In this document: in pieces, positions 2,319-39,425 of the stretch
Layout of the letters: each line of letters starts with the position of its first letter
How positions within the stretch are numbered: the stretch's first letter is position 1
DNA from: a bacterium
GTDB lineage: Bacteria > Patescibacteriota > Minisyncoccia > Minisyncoccales > GWA2-46-15
DNA: 64,000 nucleotides
Assembly: GCA_030693425.1 (NCBI GenBank)
Contig: JAUYAM010000002.1
Coordinates: 384,632-448,631, forward strand
Direction: 5' to 3'
Notes under the pieces: model-generated
The model's database searches: none
Seen by the model: the letters and a program-made list of their open reading frames with translations, nothing else
Told to the model about the DNA's origin: nothing
Program-made: the position numbers and the translations under genes

Positions 2319-3932
2319 ATGAAACAAGAAACCAACAAAATTAAATACTTTCTTTACGCCAGAAAGTCATCAGAGAGCGAAGATCGACAGGTGCAGTCCA
2401 TTGATGATCAGACAGACCGGCTAAAAAGATTAGCTCAAGATTTGGGTTTAAATATTAAGAAAATTTACATTGAGGCGAAGTCGGCAAAAAAACCAAACAA
2501 TCGTCCAATTTTTGATGAAATGATACAAAGGATTGAGAACGGCGAAGCCGAAGGTATTTTATGCTGGCAGATAAATCGCCTTTCTCGCAACCCTATTGAT
2601 AGCGGAAAACTTCAATGGCTGTTACAACAAGGCACATTAAAATCGCTTCAAACGATAGATAGACAATATCTTCCCGACGATAACGTTTTACTTTTTAGCG
2701 TAGAAAGCGGATCAGCAAATCAGTTTGTCTTGGATTTAAGCAAAAACACCAAACGAGGAATGTTGAGAAAATTGGAAAGTGGGTGGCAAACAGGAATAGC
2801 GCCGCTCGGCTATCTCAACGACAAGGAAAATAAAATTATCATCAAAGATCCGGAGCGTTTCAATCTTGTCCGCAAAATGTGGGACTTAATGCTTACCGGC
2901 AACTACACTGCTCCCAAAATTTTGGATATTGCCAACAATGATTGGGGTTTTAGGACAAGGAAGTTCAAACGGATCGGCGACTGTCCACTTTCACGAAGTG
3001 GGATTTATAAAATCTTTACGAGCTTATTTTATATCGGAATTATAGAAAATGCTGGGGTTCAATATGAAGGCAAGCACGATAAAATGATCACACTTGAAGA
3101 ATATGACCGAGTACAAATGCTTCTTGGCAGAAAGGGCAAACCAAGACCCAAACATCACGAGTTTGCTTTTACCGGTTCAATTCGTTGTGGCGTGTGCGGT
3201 TGTCTTTATACAGCCGAGACAAAGAAAAAGTTCATAAAAGAAACTGGTGAAATAAAAGAATACACCTATTATCATTGCACAAGGAAAACAACAAAAATTA
3301 AGTGCGATCAAAGAAAAAGTATTTCGGTTGATGATTTGGAGTTATCTATTGAGAAAGAAATAGAAAAATACACTATTTTGCCGGAATTTTTACAATGGGC
3401 GCTAGAAGGTTTGAACAAAAAAAATGACACCGAGATTGAAGACAGATCAAAGATTTATGAAATGCAACACAAAACCTTAACGGAAACACAAAAGGAGCTG
3501 GATGAGCTTACCAAAATGAGATACCGCCAGCTTATTGACGACGAAACTTTTATTAAAGAAAAAAACACACTTCAAAGTAGAATCTCCCAGCTTAAAGAAA
3601 ACTTGCGAGAAACAGAGACACGGGCCGATAAATGGTTGGAGCTTACTGAAAAAACTTTTAACTTTGCTACTTACGCCCGTAAAGCATTCATAACAGCCAA
3701 AGGAAAAGAAGGGTTAGAACTGAAGAAAGAAATCTTATTGGCATTAGGAAAAACGCCGATAATGAACGGCGGAAAGCTCCTTATTGAAGCAAATGAGTGG
3801 TTCGTACCTACTAATAATGATTATCCTGCGTTGGAAAAGGAATACATAGGGTTAGAACTGAACAAAATGCCCTTAAATAAAGCAAAAACAGAAGCTCTCG
3901 CCTCTGTTCGTGCACGTTGGCTCCGCAGGTAG
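2319..3932 (+). CDS. Large serine recombinase (resolvase domain + recombinase domain + zinc ribbon + coiled coil)
   Basis: N-terminal YARKSSESEDRQ..SIDDQ catalytic-Ser region, INRLSRN, CGVCG...YYHC zinc ribbon, C-terminal coiled-coil-like region; 537 aa. Confidence 0.9.
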   Translation: MKQETNKIKYFLYARKSSESEDRQVQSIDDQTDRLKRLAQDLGLNIKKIYIEAKSAKKPNNRPIFDEMIQRIENGEAEGILCWQINRLSRNPIDSGKLQWLLQQGTLKSLQTIDRQYLPDDNVLLFSVESGSANQFVLDLSKNTKRGMLRKLESGWQTGIAPLGYLNDKENKIIIKDPERFNLVRKMWDLMLTGNYTAPKILDIANNDWGFRTRKFKRIGDCPLSRSGIYKIFTSLFYIGIIENAGVQYEGKHDKMITLEEYDRVQMLLGRKGKPRPKHHEFAFTGSIRCGVCGCLYTAETKKKFIKETGEIKEYTYYHCTRKTTKIKCDQRKSISVDDLELSIEKEIEKYTILPEFLQWALEGLNKKNDTEIEDRSKIYEMQHKTLTETQKELDELTKMRYRQLIDDETFIKEKNTLQSRISQLKENLRETETRADKWLELTEKTFNFATYARKAFITAKGKEGLELKKEILLALGKTPIMNGGKLLIEANEWFVPTNNDYPALEKEYIGLELNKMPLNKAKTEALASVRARWLRR

Positions 3933-3992
3933 GATTCGAACCTACAACCCACTCCTTAACAGGGAGTCGCTCTACCGTTGAGCTACTGCGGA
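3918..3992 (-). tRNA. tRNA-Asn (anticodon GTT), CCA encoded
   Basis: Hand-folded cloverleaf: acceptor TCCGCAG/CTGCGGA, anticodon loop CTGTTAA, T-arm GTAGG-TTCGAAT-CCTAC. Confidence 0.9.
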
Positions 3993-28054: not shown

Positions 28055-28150
28055 GTTTTTAAAAGGTTAATTTGTATTTACGGAGCGAAAACGCAGTTTT
28101 CTGCCCTTAGTTTATCTTAACCAATAGTACAAAAAATACAAGAAAAAACC

Positions 28151-28214
28151 AAAAAAGCCTGCCTACCGCCTGCCTGCCGGCAGGCAGGGTAGGCAGGCGC
28201 CTTTCTGGCGACTT
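28151..28214 (-). terminator. Junction module copy 4 with expanded GCCTGCC palindrome
   Basis: About 21-bp stem at 28157-28198 (GCCTGCCTACCGCCTGCCTGCC/GGCAGGCAGG-GTAGGCAGGC), flanked by GCGCCTTTCTGGCGAC and a T-run on the minus strand. Confidence 0.7.
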
Positions 28215-28325
28215 TAGAAACTTTTTCATCTCTCGATCCTTCAATAAATTCAGGTCTTCGGCTCAGGCTCGAAGAGATGGTGAACCATTCGGCCCCGAGC
28301 TCATGGCCGAGGGGCTCGCCGAACC

Positions 28326-28367
28326 ATAAAAAATGTTGGCTGCGGTGCGTATTTGAAAAAATCCGAA
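28326..28367 (-). repeat. tRNA-trailer-like motif copy R4 fused to TTTTCAAATACGCACCGC box
   Basis: Minus strand TTCGGATTTTTTCAAATACGCACCGCAGCCAACATTTTTTAT; the box recurs at 32496-32520 and 35131-35152. Confidence 0.75.
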
Positions 28368-30855: not shown

Positions 30856-31623
30856 TCAAATTTTATTGTGCACAAGAATCAAAGTATTTCCGACAACCAC
30901 AAAATAATTATGTGGAAACGATGTTTGGAGATTATAAACGCTTAAAGGAATCGATATATTTGTCTTTTCTAAATTATATATTTTAACATCATTCTCGCCA
31001 TATCCAACCATTTTCTCGCCTAAGTTTAATTCTCTAACTCGTTTCCAAGTTAAAGATCCGTCTATATTTCTTACGGCGATAGGATGTTCGGAGGTAACGC
31101 CCAATACATCGTTAATCAAATAATAATCACTTGTCATTCTTGCTCGGTATTTTTGCACCGTGGATATGACGTACTTATCATCTTTATAGTCATAGCCTAT
31201 TATCTTATCACCAACTTTTAGATTTTCGATTGATTGGACACCGTTGGGTGTCAGCACTTTTGTTTCTTCGACAAAACTTCCTCCAGATGGAAAGGAATAC
31301 CACATGACTGTAGCATATGAGTAGAAAATTATGCCCACAATGAAAAGTGCGGATAAGATAAGACTAAATATTCTAAATTTAAACTTATATTCTTGAGTAA
31401 TAAATTTCGAAGCTAAAAAACCCACCCAAAAGGCGATTGGGAACCAAATAATTGCGAGCAAAATAAAGCCTTGAATCTCTGTTATCCATATCCCGTAATA
31501 TTGTCGGATTGAAGTCGTCAGGAAGTATAACAAGTCGAACAAGAAAAAAGTTAAAACCGTTGTTAGTATTGATGTTCCAACAACAACAAGGGGGTTCTTA
31601 AGATTTGTGGTTATATTTTTCAT
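30856..31623 (-). CDS. Four-TM membrane protein with C-terminal Hint (intein-like) domain
   Basis: Block B VTSEHPI; VYNLQTSFPHNYFVV; terminal LILVHN-KI; N-terminal KVLTPNGVQSIENLKVGDKI without the usual Cys. Confidence 0.75.
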   Translation of the reverse strand: MKNITTNLKNPLVVVGTSILTTVLTFFLFDLLYFLTTSIRQYYGIWITEIQGFILLAIIWFPIAFWVGFLASKFITQEYKFKFRIFSLILSALFIVGIIFYSYATVMWYSFPSGGSFVEETKVLTPNGVQSIENLKVGDKIIGYDYKDDKYVISTVQKYRARMTSDYYLINDVLGVTSEHPIAVRNIDGSLTWKRVRELNLGEKMVGYGENDVKIYNLEKTNISIPLSVYNLQTSFPHNYFVVVGNTLILVHNKI

Positions 31624-31717
31624 AATTTTAGTTCGATTAATTTATTAATATTATTCTAACAATTCTTCAATTGAAACGCCGAGAGCTTTGATAATTTTGA
31701 GGTAAGTCGGTCTCTCG

Positions 31718-31762
31718 ATAAAAAATGCTGACTGCGGGGATAATCTCCGGTACTTTGAACCG
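31718..31762 (-). repeat. tRNA-trailer-like motif copy R3 with T-arm-like hairpin
   Basis: Minus strand CGGTTCAAAGTACCGGAGATTATCCCCGCAGTCAGCATTTTTTAT. Confidence 0.8.
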
Positions 31763-31868
31763 AAAAAATGACTCAAATTTCAAGGATGTTGATAAGAGTA
31801 TATACGAATTAAGGGCTATGTTCAAACAACGTCCTGAATGGTTTGAAATTAATATTAACCCCGAGAGT

Positions 31869-32483
31869 TTAACATACGCTTTTTAACTCAAGTAAAGAAA
31901 TAATTTTTGGTGTGTAATTATATTTGTTTTCTCTATCAATTAATATTGCTTCAAAACCTACTCCCTTGGCTCCCATAATGTCTTGGTCTAAAGAATCTCC
32001 AATCATAAGCACTTTGCTTGGCTTTACTTGCATGCCGCGTACTGCCAGTTGAAAAATTTTAGGGTCGGGCTTCATAAACCCTGCTTCGAAGGAGAAAATT
32101 TCTCTATCGAAATAATGTCTTAAATCCAACCTTCTCACCTGCTCTCTTGTTATTGGTGGGGAATTGGTTATCAAGACTAATTTTTTGCCTTTTTCTTTTA
32201 AGTAGCCTAAGACATCTTTTGTCTCTGGATACAGTTTAGAGCTAGAGTTGATAAGCCAGTCCTTGATAGATGTTAGCTCTTCTTCTGTTGTAAATATTTC
32301 CTTATCTACACGTACGAGAAATTTATCCAAAGAGGAATCTTCGGTATGCCACCGGACAAAAAGTTCTTTTAGTTTTTTGAATCGTTCTGATCCGAGCTTT
32401 TCTTCTAAACGTTTTCCAACGTTCTCTATGTCTTCAAGAAAAGCAATCGTATTCCAGAGATCAAATAATATAACTTTATACAT
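31869..32483 (-). CDS. HAD-superfamily hydrolase
   Basis: Start moved to MYKVILFDLWNT (motif I); ITNSP and GDSLDQD motifs; the track's 56-aa N-terminal extension runs through the GC-rich non-coding island. Confidence 0.8.
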   Translation of the reverse strand: MYKVILFDLWNTIAFLEDIENVGKRLEEKLGSERFKKLKELFVRWHTEDSSLDKFLVRVDKEIFTTEEELTSIKDWLINSSSKLYPETKDVLGYLKEKGKKLVLITNSPPITREQVRRLDLRHYFDREIFSFEAGFMKPDPKIFQLAVRGMQVKPSKVLMIGDSLDQDIMGAKGVGFEAILIDRENKYNYTPKIISLLELKSVC

Positions 32484-32495
32484 ACATATTTTGGG

Positions 32496-32870
32496 GCGGT
32501 GTGTATTTGAAAATATCCGAACCGAACTGGCTGGGCCCCGCCTGCGTTGACTCGGCCTTCGTAGCCACTCTCGCCTCGCCAGAGCCTTCGGCGGAGCGCG
32601 GGTCGGCGAAGGAGGCAACTTCGGCGGGCAGGTCGGCGGGCGGCCCCGCAACTATCTCGCTTCGCTCGAAGTGCGGGGTAAAAATTCCCCCTAGCCCCCT
32701 GGAGTTTACCCCGCATAATCCCGAAGGGATTTGTGCGGGACCCGCCTCGCCTTGCCTGCCCGACCGAAGCAGTGCGTAGGCGGGAAGCGGAAGCGGAAAG
32801 AACGATTTCAAGTTTTTCGTTCCGCTTTTAGCGGAACTCCGAGCTTTGCTCGGTTTGGCGGCAAATTTCC
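32496..32870 (-). ncRNA. GC-rich hairpin-dense island Y (candidate structured RNA; function unknown)
   Basis: Visibly GC-rich vs flanks. 11-bp perfect stem 32672-32682/32705-32715; hairpins ATCCC-GAA-GGGAT, CCGAGC-TTT-GCTCGG, CCGC-TTTTA-GCGG; several CCCCGC/GCGGGG segments. Strand assignment tentative. Confidence 0.3.
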
Positions 32871-32875
32871 TATCT

Positions 32876-33007
32876 TTTATCTGCTATTAAAATAACAAAT
32901 TTACAATTTAATGTATATGGAGGATTTGCTGCTTCAAAATCCTCTATAACTTCTGATTCATACATTTGTGCTTGATAATTTCGAAAAAGGTTTTTTAGAA
33001 CCCTTTT
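32876..33007 (-). repeat. Perfect 132-bp duplicate of the methyltransferase gene 3' end (copy without the rest of the gene)
   Basis: Identical by eye to 35313-35444. Confidence 0.9.
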
Positions 33008-33010
33008 GTG

Positions 33011-33032
33011 GACGGGGGACGTTTCACTTTTA
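33011..33032. repeat. REP-like element, orientation a (GACGGGGGACGTTTCACTTTT)
   Basis: Reverse complement matches AAAAG(A/T)GAAACGTCCCC at 33738-33790. Confidence 0.75.
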
Positions 33033-33041
33033 AACAGAGTT

Positions 33042-33692
33042 TTAGTCATTTTTAATGTGTTGGCTTAATTTCCTTTCTATCTTTCTTTTCTCCATATATT
33101 TTTGACTATTGCTTCCCCATATCTCCTCACTATATGTTTTTTTAATTATCTGAGAGATAGTTAGTTTTTGATAGTTTATCTGCCTTTCTTTCTTGTCTTT
33201 TCCTAATCCTTGATAAAAGGAATCATCTGTTAAAAGTTCGTTTTCTTTTCCTTGGGCATAATAACCATAGCTTGAATAAGGATATTCTTGAGGTTTTTTT
33301 GTGATATTGGCTCTTACTGGATTTAATTCAATATATTTTCCACATTGAATAAAATATTCATCTTTTCCTACTGGCTTGTTTTTAAATCTGTTTTGCCAAA
33401 AGTGTCCTGTCCAGCCATACTTTTTCCTAAAATAATGATAATAGGAAAGATTTAGTTTTTTCATTAAAACAGAAAAATCTGTAGATTTATTGGTTTGGAT
33501 TAGAAGATGGACGTGATTTGGCATTAAACAATAATGATAAAGATCAAAAGGATGTTCTTTTTTATATTTTTTAATCAAGTTTAGAAAATACAAATAATCT
33601 TCTTTTTCTCTAAAGATTACATTTTTATTGTTTCCTCTTGTTATTATATGATAGCAAGATTGAAATAAAAGAAAACGAGGTAGCCTTGGCAT
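33042..33692 (-). CDS. REP-associated tyrosine transposase (RAYT; IS200/Y1 transposase-like)
   Basis: CYHIITRGNN...; HUH motif MPNHVHLLI; about 216 aa; flanked by inverted REP-like sequences. Confidence 0.85.
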   Translation of the reverse strand: MPRLPRFLLFQSCYHIITRGNNKNVIFREKEDYLYFLNLIKKYKKEHPFDLYHYCLMPNHVHLLIQTNKSTDFSVLMKKLNLSYYHYFRKKYGWTGHFWQNRFKNKPVGKDEYFIQCGKYIELNPVRANITKKPQEYPYSSYGYYAQGKENELLTDDSFYQGLGKDKKERQINYQKLTISQIIKKTYSEEIWGSNSQKYMEKRKIERKLSQHIKND

Positions 33693-33737
33693 TGTTTAAT
33701 TCTAACATGGATTAACTAAAATGACTAACTTCTTATT

Positions 33738-33802
33738 CAAAAGAGAAACGTCCCCTTTTAACGCCAAAAGAGAAACGTCCCCTTTTAACGTCCCCTTTTA
33801 AC
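33738..33802. repeat. Tandem REP-like repeats, orientation b (2.5 x about 26 nt)
   Basis: CAAAAGAGAAACGTCCCCTTTTAACG twice, then TCCCCTTTTAAC. Confidence 0.85.
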
Positions 33803-33870
33803 TTTTAACCTTCGGGTGAGGGGTTGACCATGGAGAATAGATTAAATATTTGATGAGTCTCGGCCTCTCG

Positions 33871-33889
33871 ATAAAAAATGCTGACTATG
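33871..33889 (-). repeat. tRNA-trailer-like motif copy R2 (5' part diverged)
   Basis: Minus strand CATAGTCAGCATTTTTTATCGAGAGGCCGA. Confidence 0.7.
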
Positions 33890-33924
33890 AAACGTACAAA
33901 TTGCTACGCAATTTTACGTTCCAG

Positions 33925-33973
33925 CCACGTTGAACGTAAGATTTTGCAAAGCAAAATCGACGTTCTTACGTGG
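33925..33973. repeat. 49-nt imperfect palindrome rich in ACGT boxes (REP-related cluster)
   Basis: CCACGT-TGAACGTAAGATTTTGC-AAA-GCAAAATCGACGTTCTTACGTGG. Confidence 0.65.
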
Positions 33974-34025
33974 CGGAGAACTATTTACAGTGTTATAACC
34001 TATTTTACGTTGAGAACTGTGTGTA

Positions 34026-35090
34026 TTAATCGGTGATCCAATATATATCTACAGGACTATTTTGTTTATAATTATAGTTACTTAAGATTCTTGCCCTGTT
34101 TCCCGTAGCCATATCAAGCAATTCAACCGTAATTCGGTACGGACCTCCACAATCTATATCCCATGGCAGACAACTCGTATCTCCTAATAAGAGATATTTA
34201 CCATCTGGAGATGCTGCAAGCGCATCGATACCAAATTTTTGTTTCTTCGGATATGTTTGTATTATTTCCTTTTTGTTTATGTTATAAATTCGAATCACAT
34301 CCCGTCCTGATTGAGTATTCCAATTTGGAATATAGATATACGCAATTGTTTCGCTATTAAGCACCTGGAATCTATCTACATAGTCTAATCCTTGCAATCG
34401 AAGAATTTCTTTTGAAGAAACATTCAACTTATACAAAAATCCGTAAATTCTAATAAGCACATTGTTTTCATCAAGCCAATCTAAAACACTTCTGTGTTTC
34501 CAATGATAGAAAGAAAAATCATCACACTCGCTCTTAGGACGACCACCGATTTTACAAATTTCCTGAATGTTGGATGCGAGATCTACGTGAGTTGTAGTGT
34601 CATCGTGCGTGTTAATAACCTCTATGTTTTGTTGGGATAAAAGTGCAATCTGTTCTCCATTTTTAGAAAAACTTATGACATAGCCGGGAACATTTTTTTG
34701 AGTATCTTCATACCTTAAAAGAAATGTCTTACTGATGTTGCCTTGCGAGTCGCTTACAATGAGTTTCGGATCTGGCAATACACCCTTATAGCCCAAGACT
34801 TTTCTGTCTGCAGTCACTATAGCCTGATGCTGACCATCTCTGGAAAATATTCGTTCGGATACGACAAACCTATTCTCATCTATTGTTGGTTGTGTTAATG
34901 CGCTCTTGATAACTGACTGTTTAGCGATATCCAGCCATCCATCTATAAGATAAATCTTGGAATTTATGCCAGTATTGAACTGTCTGATTGTGTGCTGTTG
35001 CAGTATTTTATTACCAATGGAAAAAAATGTTACGATCAGAATAACTATCAATGCATACCGTAGAGTTTTTGAGGTCAATGCAGTTTTCAC
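34026..35090 (-). CDS. N-terminally anchored beta-propeller-like protein (TolB/PD40-like, weak)
   Basis: GTG start behind TATAAT; TM; SPDGKYLLLGD-type repeat. Confidence 0.45.
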   Translation of the reverse strand: MKTALTSKTLRYALIVILIVTFFSIGNKILQQHTIRQFNTGINSKIYLIDGWLDIAKQSVIKSALTQPTIDENRFVVSERIFSRDGQHQAIVTADRKVLGYKGVLPDPKLIVSDSQGNISKTFLLRYEDTQKNVPGYVISFSKNGEQIALLSQQNIEVINTHDDTTTHVDLASNIQEICKIGGRPKSECDDFSFYHWKHRSVLDWLDENNVLIRIYGFLYKLNVSSKEILRLQGLDYVDRFQVLNSETIAYIYIPNWNTQSGRDVIRIYNINKKEIIQTYPKKQKFGIDALAASPDGKYLLLGDTSCLPWDIDCGGPYRITVELLDMATGNRARILSNYNYKQNSPVDIYWITD

Positions 35091-35130: not shown

Positions 35131-35305
35131 GTGGTGTGCGTTCGAAAAAATCTTTACCCTGTACTTCTACTTCGGGGGACGATTTTCCACCTTCACTAAA
35201 GTTTCGGCGGACAGGCAAGTCTTTCCCTGCCCCGTACCGAATTCATTCTGGTGCGGGGTTTGCTTTGCCCTCCGTAGTTTTTACAAAGGATGGGGCGGCA
35301 AATTC
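35131..35305 (-). ncRNA. GC-rich island X, shorter relative of island Y (candidate structured RNA)
   Basis: Shares both ends with Y (GTGTG..TTCGAAAAAATC and GGCGGCAAATT). 9-bp stem CCCCGTACC/GGTGCGGGG; contains REP-like CGGGGGACGATTTTCCAC. Confidence 0.3.
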
Positions 35306-35306
35306 T

Positions 35307-35987
35307 TTATTCTTTATCTGCTATTAAAATAACAAATTTACAATTTAATGTATATGGAGGATTTGCTGCTTCAAAATCCTCTATAACTTCTGATTCATAC
35401 ATTTGTGCTTGATAATTTCGAAAAAGGTTTTTTAGAACCCTTTTTGCATCATTTAAAGTATAAAGGGGTTCTTTGCCAAATATAATTAATTTTCCATTTA
35501 GAGAAGTTCTTTTTATGTCTGTTGCAAAATCAATTATTACTCTTCCGTTTGGTTTAAGAATCCTATCAATTTCAAAAATTATTTGTCGTAAAACTTCTTT
35601 TGGAAAAAGATGTAAGGTACCCGTGCAAAAAATGCCATCAAATAGACCGTCTTCGAATGGAAATTTCTTGGTCATATCGAAAGCTTTCGTATTTAATTTT
35701 TTCCTATATTCCTTTGGAGTATTGTGCCACAATTTACTAAGGGCACTTTCATCAATATCGGTAACGACAACAAAATCGGCTTTTTTTAATAGATTCAAAT
35801 TATAGCGACCATCGCCAGCGGCGAGATTTAACCATTTGCCATGAATTTCAATCTTCCCCAAGAGTTCCATGGTATCTTTATCGCCAGTTCCCCAAATTGA
35901 AGTTTTAGCCGTTTCAAAATAATTAACTCCTTCGGTAAAGATATACTTATCTTCTTTTGGCTTATGGGGTCTTATTATTTTTTCCAT
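35307..35987 (-). CDS. Class I SAM-dependent methyltransferase
   Basis: Motif I WLNLAAGDGRY; post-I VVTDID. Confidence 0.8.
   Translation of the reverse strand: MEKIIRPHKPKEDKYIFTEGVNYFETAKTSIWGTGDKDTMELLGKIEIHGKWLNLAAGDGRYNLNLLKKADFVVVTDIDESALSKLWHNTPKEYRKKLNTKAFDMTKKFPFEDGLFDGIFCTGTLHLFPKEVLRQIIFEIDRILKPNGRVIIDFATDIKRTSLNGKLIIFGKEPLYTLNDAKRVLKNLFRNYQAQMYESEVIEDFEAANPPYTLNCKFVILIADKE
35313..35444 (-). repeat. 132-bp segment (3' end of the methyltransferase CDS) duplicated perfectly at 32876-33007
   Basis: Direct repeats bracket the RAYT/beta-propeller segment. Confidence 0.9.
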
Positions 35988-39146: not shown

Positions 39147-39324
39147 ATTTAATTAAAGAGTTAAATTTTAAATTTTTCGACATTTTGGTTTACCTATTTT
39201 AAAGATAAATCAATCTATGCCGACTGTCAAGCCAAAATAAAAACTCGTCTATGCGCTGTCTGTCCCGAACAAAATTCGAACCACTCGGGTCGCTGACCAC
39301 TCGCGATCACTCGGGTCATGCCGA

Positions 39325-39344
39325 TAAAAAGTTGTCAATGCGGA
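39325..39344 (-). repeat. tRNA-trailer motif copy R0 (the actual 3' trailer of tRNA-Ser)
   Basis: Minus strand ..CCTTCCG-CATTGACAACTTTTTATCGGC. Confidence 0.8.
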
Positions 39345-39425
39345 AGGGGTGGGATTCGAACCCACGGACCCCGTGAGGAGCATGGTTCTCCAAACCATTC
39401 CATTTGACCGCTCTGGCACCCTTCC
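39341..39425 (-). tRNA. tRNA-Ser (anticodon GGA), long variable arm, CCA not encoded
   Basis: Acceptor GGAAGGG/CCCTTCC, anticodon stem ATGGT/ACCAT with loop TTGGAGA, T-arm GTGGG-TTCGAAT-CCCAC. Confidence 0.9.

Follow-up and report, generated by a model that had tools for sequence, protein, structure and literature searches.

The 64,000-nucleotide stretch of Patescibacteriota DNA analysed here (the window; contig JAUYAM010000002.1 of assembly GCA_030693425.1, positions 384,632 to 448,631) contains at 32496-32870 a GC-rich, hairpin-dense island, termed Y. It is read as an element on the minus strand and belongs to a family of modular elements, found in other genomes of the candidate phyla radiation (CPR), whose left end matches part of a large serine recombinase (LSR) gene. 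At 61.6% GC, with 200-nt peaks of 65%, Y is the strongest GC island of the window, whose mean is 44% GC; on one side lies a HAD-hydrolase gene of 35% GC and on the other a stretch of 28% GC (32871-33700). The first-pass annotation had described a GC island in an AT-rich genome. The island stands, but the genome is not strongly AT-rich overall, and low GC (37-39%) is local, confined to approximately 28.4-39.3 kb. The genes around Y all lie on the minus strand, and those that border or relate to it are:

31869-32483, minus strand: HAD-hydrolase gene, with its start codon 11 nt past the Y box
32857-33007, minus strand: second copy of the methyltransferase 3' end together with left terminus part a of Y (partner at 35294-35444; 132 of 151 nt 100% identical)
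35307-35987, minus strand: intact methyltransferase gene, with element X downstream

Along the element strand, Y itself is parsed as follows:

32495-32870, minus strand: Y, the full element, approximately 375 nt and the longest family copy (other complete copies are 212-303 nt)
32854-32870, minus strand: left terminus part a, GGAAATTTGCCGCCAAA, which is homologous to nt 88-104 of the LSR gene
32819-32853, minus strand: module A, the perfect hairpins CCGAGC-AAA-GCTCGG and GTTCCGC-TAAAA-GCGGAAC, at a hot spot between GCCGCCAAA and GAAAAACTTG
32800-32818, minus strand: left terminus part b, GAAAAACTTGAAATCGTTC, which is homologous to nt 105-120 of the LSR gene
32784-32799, minus strand: link, TTTCCGCTTCCGCTTC
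32754-32783, minus strand: module B, CCGCCTACGCACTGCTTCGGTCGGGCAGGC, inverted partner of module D
32628-32753, minus strand: core, a module of approximately 125 nt, nearly invariant across CPR lineages (32635-32753 clear of module D)
32618-32634 and 32527-32550, minus strand: module D, shared with related loci L013, L014 and L035
32551-32617, minus strand: module E, 67 nt, nested in module D and found only in Y among the loci fetched
32495-32526, minus strand: right-terminal box, TTCGGTTCGGATATTTTCAAATACACACCGCC, with family homology stopping at CACCGCC(A)

Left terminus part a begins 0-5 nt past the stop codon of the methyltransferase fragment, and the 132-nt duplicate terminates exactly at the GCCGCC of that terminus, an arrangement that fits either homologous or site-specific recombination. 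As had been reported, X follows the intact methyltransferase gene and Y follows the duplicate of that gene's 3' end. A diversity-generating retroelement, with template and variable repeats, was considered for this pair and rejected, the 132-nt copies being 100% identical and no reverse transcriptase being seen. Two independent Logan contigs (SRR13727538) are 100% identical to the window, and since one of them spans the HAD gene into mid-Y, the junction of Y with that gene is not a misassembly. Logan contig L001 breaks within the methyltransferase duplicate, and a search of public assemblies for the exact methyltransferase protein of the window gave no match.

Because modules B and D are inverted partners, all of Y can be drawn as a long irregular hairpin around the core, and it is long, GC-rich and hairpin-dense because four inserted palindromic modules are added to that core. 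The perfect complementarity of 32672-32682 with 32705-32715 (an 11-bp helix), the ATCCC-GAA-GGGAT, CCGAGC-TTT-GCTCGG and CCGC-TTTTA-GCGG hairpins and the CCCCGC/GCGGGG repeats were all recovered as first described. A perfect hairpin stem of at least 11 bp appeared in 4 of 2000 shuffles of Y, and its minimum free energy compared with shuffles gave z = -5.0 for the plus strand and z = -3.95 for the minus strand.

All six frames of Y had been called open, a claim that does not hold, as one frame is free of stops and the remaining frames carry 1-4. That single open frame (111 aa) was used as bait, a choice made because metagenome gene callers translate open GC-rich DNA, and was followed by scans of CPR metagenomes and metagenome-assembled genomes (MAGs) for DNA patterns and exact 20-mers of the core. 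The bait matched 29 database “proteins” at 50-60% identity over >90% of the query, as might be expected if Y were protein-coding or a gene fragment from a GC-rich donor. However, these matches are hypothetical open reading frames (ORFs) without a Pfam domain, save for an unrelated fused helix-turn-helix (HTH), and their conserved stretch is the DNA core, with flanks that vary by module insertion; the invariant centre GEAGPAQIPSGLCGVNSRGLGGIFTPHFERSEIVAGPPAEP and the shared end FRSDIFKQTPP are core and box read in one frame. Long ORFs across Y likewise gave no Pfam match, and against an assembly artefact, Logan contigs reproduce the Y sequence at 100%. The coding and artefact readings were both rejected and are scarcely credible. 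The related suspicion of a decayed gene holds for the ends only in that the left terminus is an LSR gene fragment and the right imitates the 3' end of tRNA-Ser; gene decay does not account for the GC-rich interior.

Approximately 50 related loci (numbered with the prefix L) were recovered in CPR metagenomes and MAGs. Exact core 20-mers occur in eight GTDB genomes titled Parcubacteria, Portnoybacteria, Uhrbacteria and Saccharibacteria, in two more labelled Gammaproteobacteria and in 42 true metagenome loci, and a Shapirobacteria MAG copy was fetched separately. The MAGs labelled Gammaproteobacteria in GTDB (L012, L015) carry the CPR element and are probably misbinned. Among viral contigs, the core 20-mer had one chance match and the left terminus none, and a phage origin was rejected.

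Members of the family share a scaffold that starts with (T)AAAGAATTTGCCGCCAAA followed directly by GAAAAACTTGAAATCGTC, passes through the link CTTTCCGC..AAGGCGAGGCG into the core, continues as CCGCCCGCCGAGCC.. and closes with the box TTCGGATATTTTCAAA(CAGA/TACA)CACCGCC(A), 27-32 nt in length, after which homology ends and the flanks change. GC-rich palindromes occupy hot spots after GCCGCCAAA, after ATCGTC, after GGTTC and, in the box, after TTCG; the box of L005, for instance, is split by a 20-nt palindrome. One palindrome may occupy differing hot spots in differing copies, and insertions are sometimes nested. Termini and core recur at 22-49 loci and modules A, B and D at 3-5 loci each (module A in L027, L033, L040, L047 and L050), whereas module E recurs at none. 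The minimal copy, L048:1327, has its left terminus fused straight to the box. In some core-less copies (L058:1300-1345, L047:3790-3830, L020:6022-6117) an outer stem, GGCGGGCGGAA..TTCCGCCCGCC, closes a twin G-run loop (GGGGGG-TGT-GGGGGGAA) that resembles the loop of core helix P3b (AGGGGG-CUA-GGGGGAAUU). Multiple non-coding copies in unrelated contexts are thus found, as in MITEs, the miniature transposable elements with inverted repeats, and other dispersed repeats. Of the two possibilities originally offered, modular RNA elements or mobile non-coding inserts, the modular family of non-coding inserts is borne out by approximately 50 loci with the same termini and interchangeable modules, but the novel structured RNA is left unproven, with no Rfam match, no promoter-like or terminator-like site in Y and one compensatory pair.

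The left end of the scaffold is recombinase sequence. Its 33 nt are identical to nt 88-120 (codons 29-40, EFAAKEKLEIV) of the gene for a 520-aa LSR at L040 and L013, and the link of the element resembles nt 121-137 of the same gene; in database ORF P0017, the LSR N-terminus runs directly into the element. This segment, nt 88-120, is the most codon-identical stretch (10 of 12 codons) of two LSRs that share 56% protein identity. Six loci (L027, L032, L040, L045, L050, L052) have core and box in the orientation of the LSR gene, 130 nt upstream of its start codon. A complete unit is ordered as core, box, an inverted repeat of 87-113 nt, the LSR gene and the repeat again, and abuts the CCA end of tRNA-Ser. 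The inverted repeats (87 nt in L032, 113 nt in L013) are 96% complementary; one begins exactly at the box end (..ACCGCCA, then GTCGG..), and in L032 the other meets an antisense tRNA-Ser at the CCA end of that tRNA. In L013, the LSR ORF and an antisense tRNA-Ser(UGA) overlap at the 3' end of the tRNA. Units at least 98.8% identical are joined, at ..CCGAC followed by TGGCGGAG.., to tRNA-Ser(UGA), tRNA-Ser(GGA) and tRNA-Ser(GCU) in separate contigs, and because the segment common to these loci starts at the link to the left of the core, core and box travel with the recombinase. The LSR unit is approximately 1.75 kb (L032:789-2482, L013:5594-7316), with one inverted repeat overlapping the 3' coding end of the gene. 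Pieces of this gene (nt 138-157 and approximately 1335-1364) recur upstream in reverse complement, which suggests past inversions at fixed breakpoints.

The right end, in turn, is tied to tRNA-Ser, as the box end CACCGCC(A) is the same sequence as the tRNA-Ser 3' end. The string CCGC(C)AGTCAGCATTTTTTATCG follows tRNA-Ser and box alike: AGTCAGCATTTTTTATCG, found after several solo boxes, forms the tRNA-Ser(UGA) trailer in L003 and closely resembles that of the window tRNA-Ser(GGA), and a second trailer type, GTTRGGAAATGAAGTCATTGGCTCG, follows tRNA-Ser(GCU) and several boxes. Past the shared att-like core, copies on the tRNA side run GCATGACCCGA and those on the box side AGAGACCGA, two distal flank classes that, on sequence, constitute the classical pattern of putative attL and attR sites. 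In L003, a restriction-modification islet of 4.7 kb, with the element at its end, lies between such an att-like pair. Related loci also carry a recombinase gene with Resolvase, Recombinase and Zn-ribbon domains at the element end beside a tRNA 3' end, while Y itself is without one.

The family also appears to have moved recently. Three loci (L008, L017, L051) carry the element at orthologous positions, upstream of a gene for an ACT-domain protein; over approximately 120 nt, loops included, its copies there are 99-100% identical, beside a gene that is just 68-76% identical. Neutral vertical descent cannot account for this difference and long-term purifying selection rarely would; the simplest reading is recent horizontal spread or homogenisation of the element. 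Family membership, modular build, LSR homology, tRNA-Ser junctions, near-identity across lineages and conservation far above that of the neighbouring genes are all shown by the sequences. We hold, with moderate confidence, that Y is a solo, LSR-less derivative of an LSR-type integrative element targeting tRNA-Ser, built by nested insertion of GC-rich palindromes and kept similar across CPR lineages by recent transfer. The end or a relic of a mobile element is a likelier identity for it than an independent RNA gene. Under this account, the LSR would move the element, and the hairpins may act as folded DNA or RNA during LSR-driven movement. Small GC-rich palindromic modules would have been inserted, partly nested, at a few fixed hot spots of the scaffold, and Y would now be a passive relic, transcribed through with its neighbours.

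Several observations weigh against the derivation of Y from an LSR element. No LSR of the element family lies within 28 kb of Y, and the only LSR of the window (2319-3932, plus strand, 537 aa) is 35% identical to the family LSR and does not contain the 33-nt stretch. Neither a target-site duplication nor an empty site or circular junction was found, and the left boundary of the element at LSR nt 85 has no explanation. Solo copies lie mostly beside housekeeping genes rather than tRNAs. Their 127 neighbouring ORFs match 128 Pfam families, none in more than four ORFs, and include no conserved neighbouring gene family; this diversity indicates a dispersed repeat that is not limited to islands. Several contigs end or switch flanks within the element, and L024 has the flank of L010 on its left and that of L003 on its right, joined within the core, probably by chimeric assembly. 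Contigs that break in the element imply that some of the “different contexts” may be assembly artefacts, although such breakage is itself a mark of a repeat. Two features of the core belong on the same side and would fit selection on an RNA: substitutions and indels concentrate in the loops of its helices P2 and P3b, and one-sided stem changes mostly yield G-U pairs on the gene-sense strand, with approximately 12 events against 3-4 yielding A-C. This lean towards G-U hints weakly at selection on an element-strand transcript or at a strand-specific mutation bias.

The core is known in 31 distinct sequences, and an alignment of 24 of them has a mean column identity of 90%; the scan pattern fixed 20 nt of its 3' part, so invariance there is partly ascertainment. 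Its helices are P1, of 15 bp interrupted by two bulges, P2, a 6-bp stem closed by a triloop (AAUCCC-UUC-GGGAUU), and P3 with P3b (15 bp), P3 being the 11-bp helix, and a conserved 23-nt strand, CACUUCGAGCGAAGCGAGAUAGU, drawn unpaired, connects P3 back to P1. A covariance model built from the 24 family copies finds a single core in the window, at 32628-32752 on the minus strand, with 155 bits. As CCCCGCA and TGCGGGG each occur twice in the core, an alternative fold of two adjacent hairpins is possible, and L015 retains only the second of these. A single compensatory pair, G-C to A-U in L026 and L042, favours the nested fold over the two-hairpin one, and there is just one such pair because the copies are approximately 90-95% identical. 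A long-range pairing of P2 proposed by RNAalifold was set aside in favour of the local hairpin, as all variants would then land in stem positions.

The core could be a functional structured RNA made from the minus strand, either a leader or regulator of the LSR mRNA or a protective or processing structure, with Y expressed in the leader of the HAD gene. Its place upstream of the LSR start codon at six loci, in the same orientation, would suit this role. Moreover, 68% of neighbouring ORFs are co-oriented with the element, and the next gene begins 7-22 nt past the box in Y, L048 and L029, so that this gene is probably transcribed through the element. The core has approximately 64% GC in hosts of roughly 39-57% GC (as suggested by MAG names), and over 36 pairs, 97.7% of cells are paired in P1, P2, P3 and P3b compared with 42-58% when partners are slid. 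Together with the compensatory pair and the pattern of loop and stem changes given above, these points have to be set against a series of others. Against Rfam 15, whose families include RNase P, tmRNA, SRP, 6S, ribozymes, HEARO and ROOL, there was no match at gathering score or E ≤ 10; for Y, the best at E 1-3 were miRNA and long non-coding RNA noise, and 10 related loci returned tRNAs only. A consensus scan of Y revealed nothing resembling a promoter or terminator, the fold of the minimal element does not surpass that of shuffles (z = -1.2), and covariation is essentially nil. The core or its inner half is often missing (L015, X, L058:1215, L047:3675, L032:9976), and a whole tRNA-Gly stands in place of P2 in L011 and L053. 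Finally, identity of 99-100% that extends to the loops, beside flanking genes 24-32% different, speaks for recent transfer over long-term purifying selection. We regard a functional RNA as rather doubtful on balance.

The tRNA-Gly variant is from Uhrbacteria (L011:4590-4830, L053), where the whole tRNA-Gly(GCC) gene sits on a long stem replacing P2 and is preceded by sequence that resembles the 5' three-quarters of another tRNA-Gly. ARAGORN finds just the nested tRNA-Gly, and the ideas that the core folds like a tRNA or that L011 holds a split tRNA were rejected. The same fate met RNase P and tmRNA, for although GGUAAACUCCA and AGAUAG looked RNase P-like by eye, Rfam did not bear this out.

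Within the window, Y is one of a series of box, trailer and tRNA-Ser junctions:

39295-39425, minus strand: tRNA-Ser(GGA) (39340-39425) with trailer ATTGACAACTTTTTATCGGCATGACCCGAG
35131-35307, minus strand: X, a core-less degenerate family member with left terminus part a, a remnant of AAATCGTCC, a CCCCGCACCAGA..TCGGTACGGGG hairpin module and a weak box
34026-35090, minus strand: 354-aa gene
33849-34025, minus strand: partial box (34010-34025), ACGT-rich repeat insert and trailer motif AGTCAGCATTTTTTATCGAGAGG (33860-33890), directly 3' of the 354-aa gene
31707-31737, minus strand: further trailer motif, CCCCGC followed by AGTCAGCATTTTTTATCGAGAGACCGA, downstream of the HAD gene
28326-28367, minus strand: solo box with the tRNA-Ser trailer motif (AGCCAACATTTTTTATGG), 24/26 against the Y box

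The 5' end reported as common to X and Y, GGCGGCAAATT, was confirmed; it lies within the duplication, yet it is also the family-wide left terminus at unrelated loci. Of the shared 3' box, the copy at 28342-28367 matches the Y box (32496-32521) at 24 of 26 positions, with 0.07 such matches expected by chance, but the X copy matches at just 18 of 26. The joining of the copy at 28342 to a tRNA trailer motif was also correct, and the trailer is that of tRNA-Ser; together they look like an attR-type junction, to judge from sequence. The tRNA-Ser(GGA) trailer matches the core-plus-flank layout of the tRNA-Ser(UGA) end in L003 and is therefore a candidate attL for the low-GC region at 28.3-39.3 kb. 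Downstream of this tRNA on the minus strand follow X, the partial box with its trailer, Y, the trailer at 31737-31707 and the box and trailer at 28367-28326; past the 28326 junction GC regains 45-55%. From this layout we infer that 28.3-39.3 kb of the window comprises three tandem islets accreted at tRNA-Ser, with Y the recombinase-less end module of the middle islet and the HAD gene situated between the Y box and a trailer copy.

Other features of this region and its relatives may be recorded here. Just past the solo box, at 28150-28325, lies a GC-rich hairpin cluster with a near-perfect 40-nt palindrome, CCTGCCTACCGCCTGCCTGCCGGCAGGCAGGGTAGGCAGG, whose 20-nt centre is the palindrome that splits the box of L005. 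Iteron- or operator-like stretches of approximately 75-120 nt rich in ACGTAA/TTACGT (window 33890-34010, L061:270-345, L005:1564-1640) lie between a box or tRNA end and a trailer motif in three unrelated loci. A short ORF (31651-31776, minus strand) that starts in the trailer motif reads as the C-terminal half of an XRE-type HTH (QSAFFIERPTYLKIIKALGVSIEELLE), and database ORF P0029 has a complete HTH downstream of a fused core-less element. At 30856-31623 (minus strand), in the low-GC stretch, is a gene for a 255-aa membrane protein with a C-terminal pretoxin-HINT domain, typical island cargo. The LSR ORF of the window overlaps an antisense tRNA-Asn (3918-3992) by 15 nt at the 3' end of the tRNA, a gene-abuts-tRNA layout like that of the tRNA-Ser units; no inverted repeats were found around this gene.

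The position of the HAD gene, exactly between the end of the Y box and a copy of the trailer motif, would also suit integron-like cassettes run by a serine recombinase, in which a gene and an attC-like 3' element are inserted and excised at CCGCC(A) beside tRNA-Ser. One-orientation arrays of gene-element-gene-element occur in L047, L058, L049, L013 and the window, and among the 20 elements whose left terminus can be recognised, eight begin 0-5 nt past a co-oriented stop codon, though intergenic repeats of the repetitive extragenic palindrome (REP) or BOX type would likewise follow stop codons. Genes or small ORFs are inserted at element hot spots (L032:6096-6403, L013:3114-3446), and each of the two trailer types occurs both after a tRNA and after a box, so that all four possible pairings are seen. 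Many such junction variants, however, come from short metagenome contigs that break in the repeat, and the array order varies among L027, L032, L033 and L040, possibly through assembly chimerism. The LSR gene carries CCGCCAAAGAA twice and has recurrent breakpoints at nt 120 and nt 137, but most arrays are without an adjacent recombinase, their neighbours are mainly housekeeping genes, and the lack of circular junctions and empty sites among the loci counts here as well. Folded sites of such a kind are not known for serine recombinases, which weighs further against cassettes and makes them unlikely. A more elaborate version, a CPR cassette system with a serine recombinase anchored at tRNA-Ser, in which Y-type elements would be folded attC-like sites and the core a functional RNA or single-stranded DNA for recombination or its control, is less likely again.

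The neighbour of Y on its other side has prompted consideration of a different mobile element. A gene for an IS200-like Y1 transposase of the REP-associated tyrosine transposase (RAYT) type (33042-33692, minus strand), 170 nt from Y, truncates the duplicated methyltransferase copy. It is bounded by its own inverted repeats, GGGGACGTTTC(A/T)CTTTT, and three tandem copies of AACGTCCCCTTTTAAC stand at 33747-33802 (region 33015-33802). Y could thus be made of palindromes of the REP or bacterial interspersed mosaic element (BIME) type mobilised by this transposase: the Y1_Tnp gene adjoins Y and has flanking inverted repeats, and the Y modules are short GC-rich palindromes. The RAYT flanking repeats, however, have no counterpart in Y, Y1_Tnp is absent from the recurrent neighbours of the family, and the scaffold ends come from LSR and tRNA-Ser sequence. 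A RAYT/REP origin was rejected, there being no palindromes in Y cognate to the RAYT flanks, and is very improbable.

The Y family shares features with several known systems and differs from each of them. Like pneumococcal BOX (boxA-boxB(n)-boxC), enterobacterial BIME/REP and enterobacterial repetitive intergenic consensus (ERIC), Neisseria Correia and Rickettsia palindromic elements, the Y family is non-coding, dispersed and intergenic, often after stop codons, with conserved end modules, variable inner modules, strong predicted structure and spurious small ORFs supplied by gene callers. Unlike these modular intergenic repeats, its ends are a recombinase gene segment and a mimic of the tRNA-Ser 3' end, it is linked to a serine recombinase in complete units and seen at low copy number per genome, and its core is nearly identical across phylum-level CPR lineages. 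With tRNA-targeting islands and LSR elements (phiC31 and Bxb1 integrases, TnpX/TndX, SCCmec Ccr) it has in common a recombinase gene at the element end, abutting a tRNA 3' end, an att-like core at the tRNA and at the distal islet end (L003 and the window), tandem accretion and the use of one tRNA family. Known LSR sites are 40-50 bp and unstructured, whereas the Y family has a 125-nt GC-rich, predicted folded module and 87-113 nt inverted repeats flanking the putative recombinase gene; it also carries an internal segment of its own recombinase gene, and its solo copies lie far from tRNAs.

As with integron attC sites, a structured element with conserved termini and a variable, imperfectly palindromic middle stands directly 3' of would-be cassette genes in one-orientation arrays. 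Unlike them, the Y family is without an IntI-type tyrosine recombinase, attI or R''/R' core sites; no tyrosine integrase occurs among the recurrent neighbour families and no RYYYAAC/GTTRRRY pair in the element, though GTT often follows CCGCCA. The enzyme is instead a serine recombinase, and cassette mobility is proposed by analogy. Y resembles non-autonomous mobile elements in being short and structured, in its relation to a portion of an autonomous element and in its horizontal spread. In contrast to a MITE, what its left end AAGAATTTGCCGCC has in common with its right end ACACCGCC is a direct CCGCC and not an inverted repeat, and no consistent flank duplication was seen at family copies; nor is Y a simple internal deletion of the recombinase unit. 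By analogy, the closest comparison for how the family would work is with BOX, BIME and ERIC, modular intergenic repeats, joined here to the end of a recombinase element that targets tRNA genes.

The family appears to be undescribed, with no Rfam match and nothing relevant from full-text searches of the literature. It unites large serine recombinases, tRNA-Ser integration sites and nested GC-rich palindromic modules, an unusual combination, in the CPR or Patescibacteria, whose genomes are tiny and whose mobile DNA is poorly charted. For metagenomics it is a practical hazard, as the element breaks or chimerises assemblies and seeds spurious “hypothetical proteins”. Because one module is near-identical in MAGs titled Parcubacteria, Saccharibacteria and Shapirobacteria (Microgenomates), it is a marker of recent gene flow between these lineages. 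If it is true that the recombinase acts on these sites, the CPR would possess a new, compact integration system specific for tRNA-Ser, possibly one capable of cassette capture.

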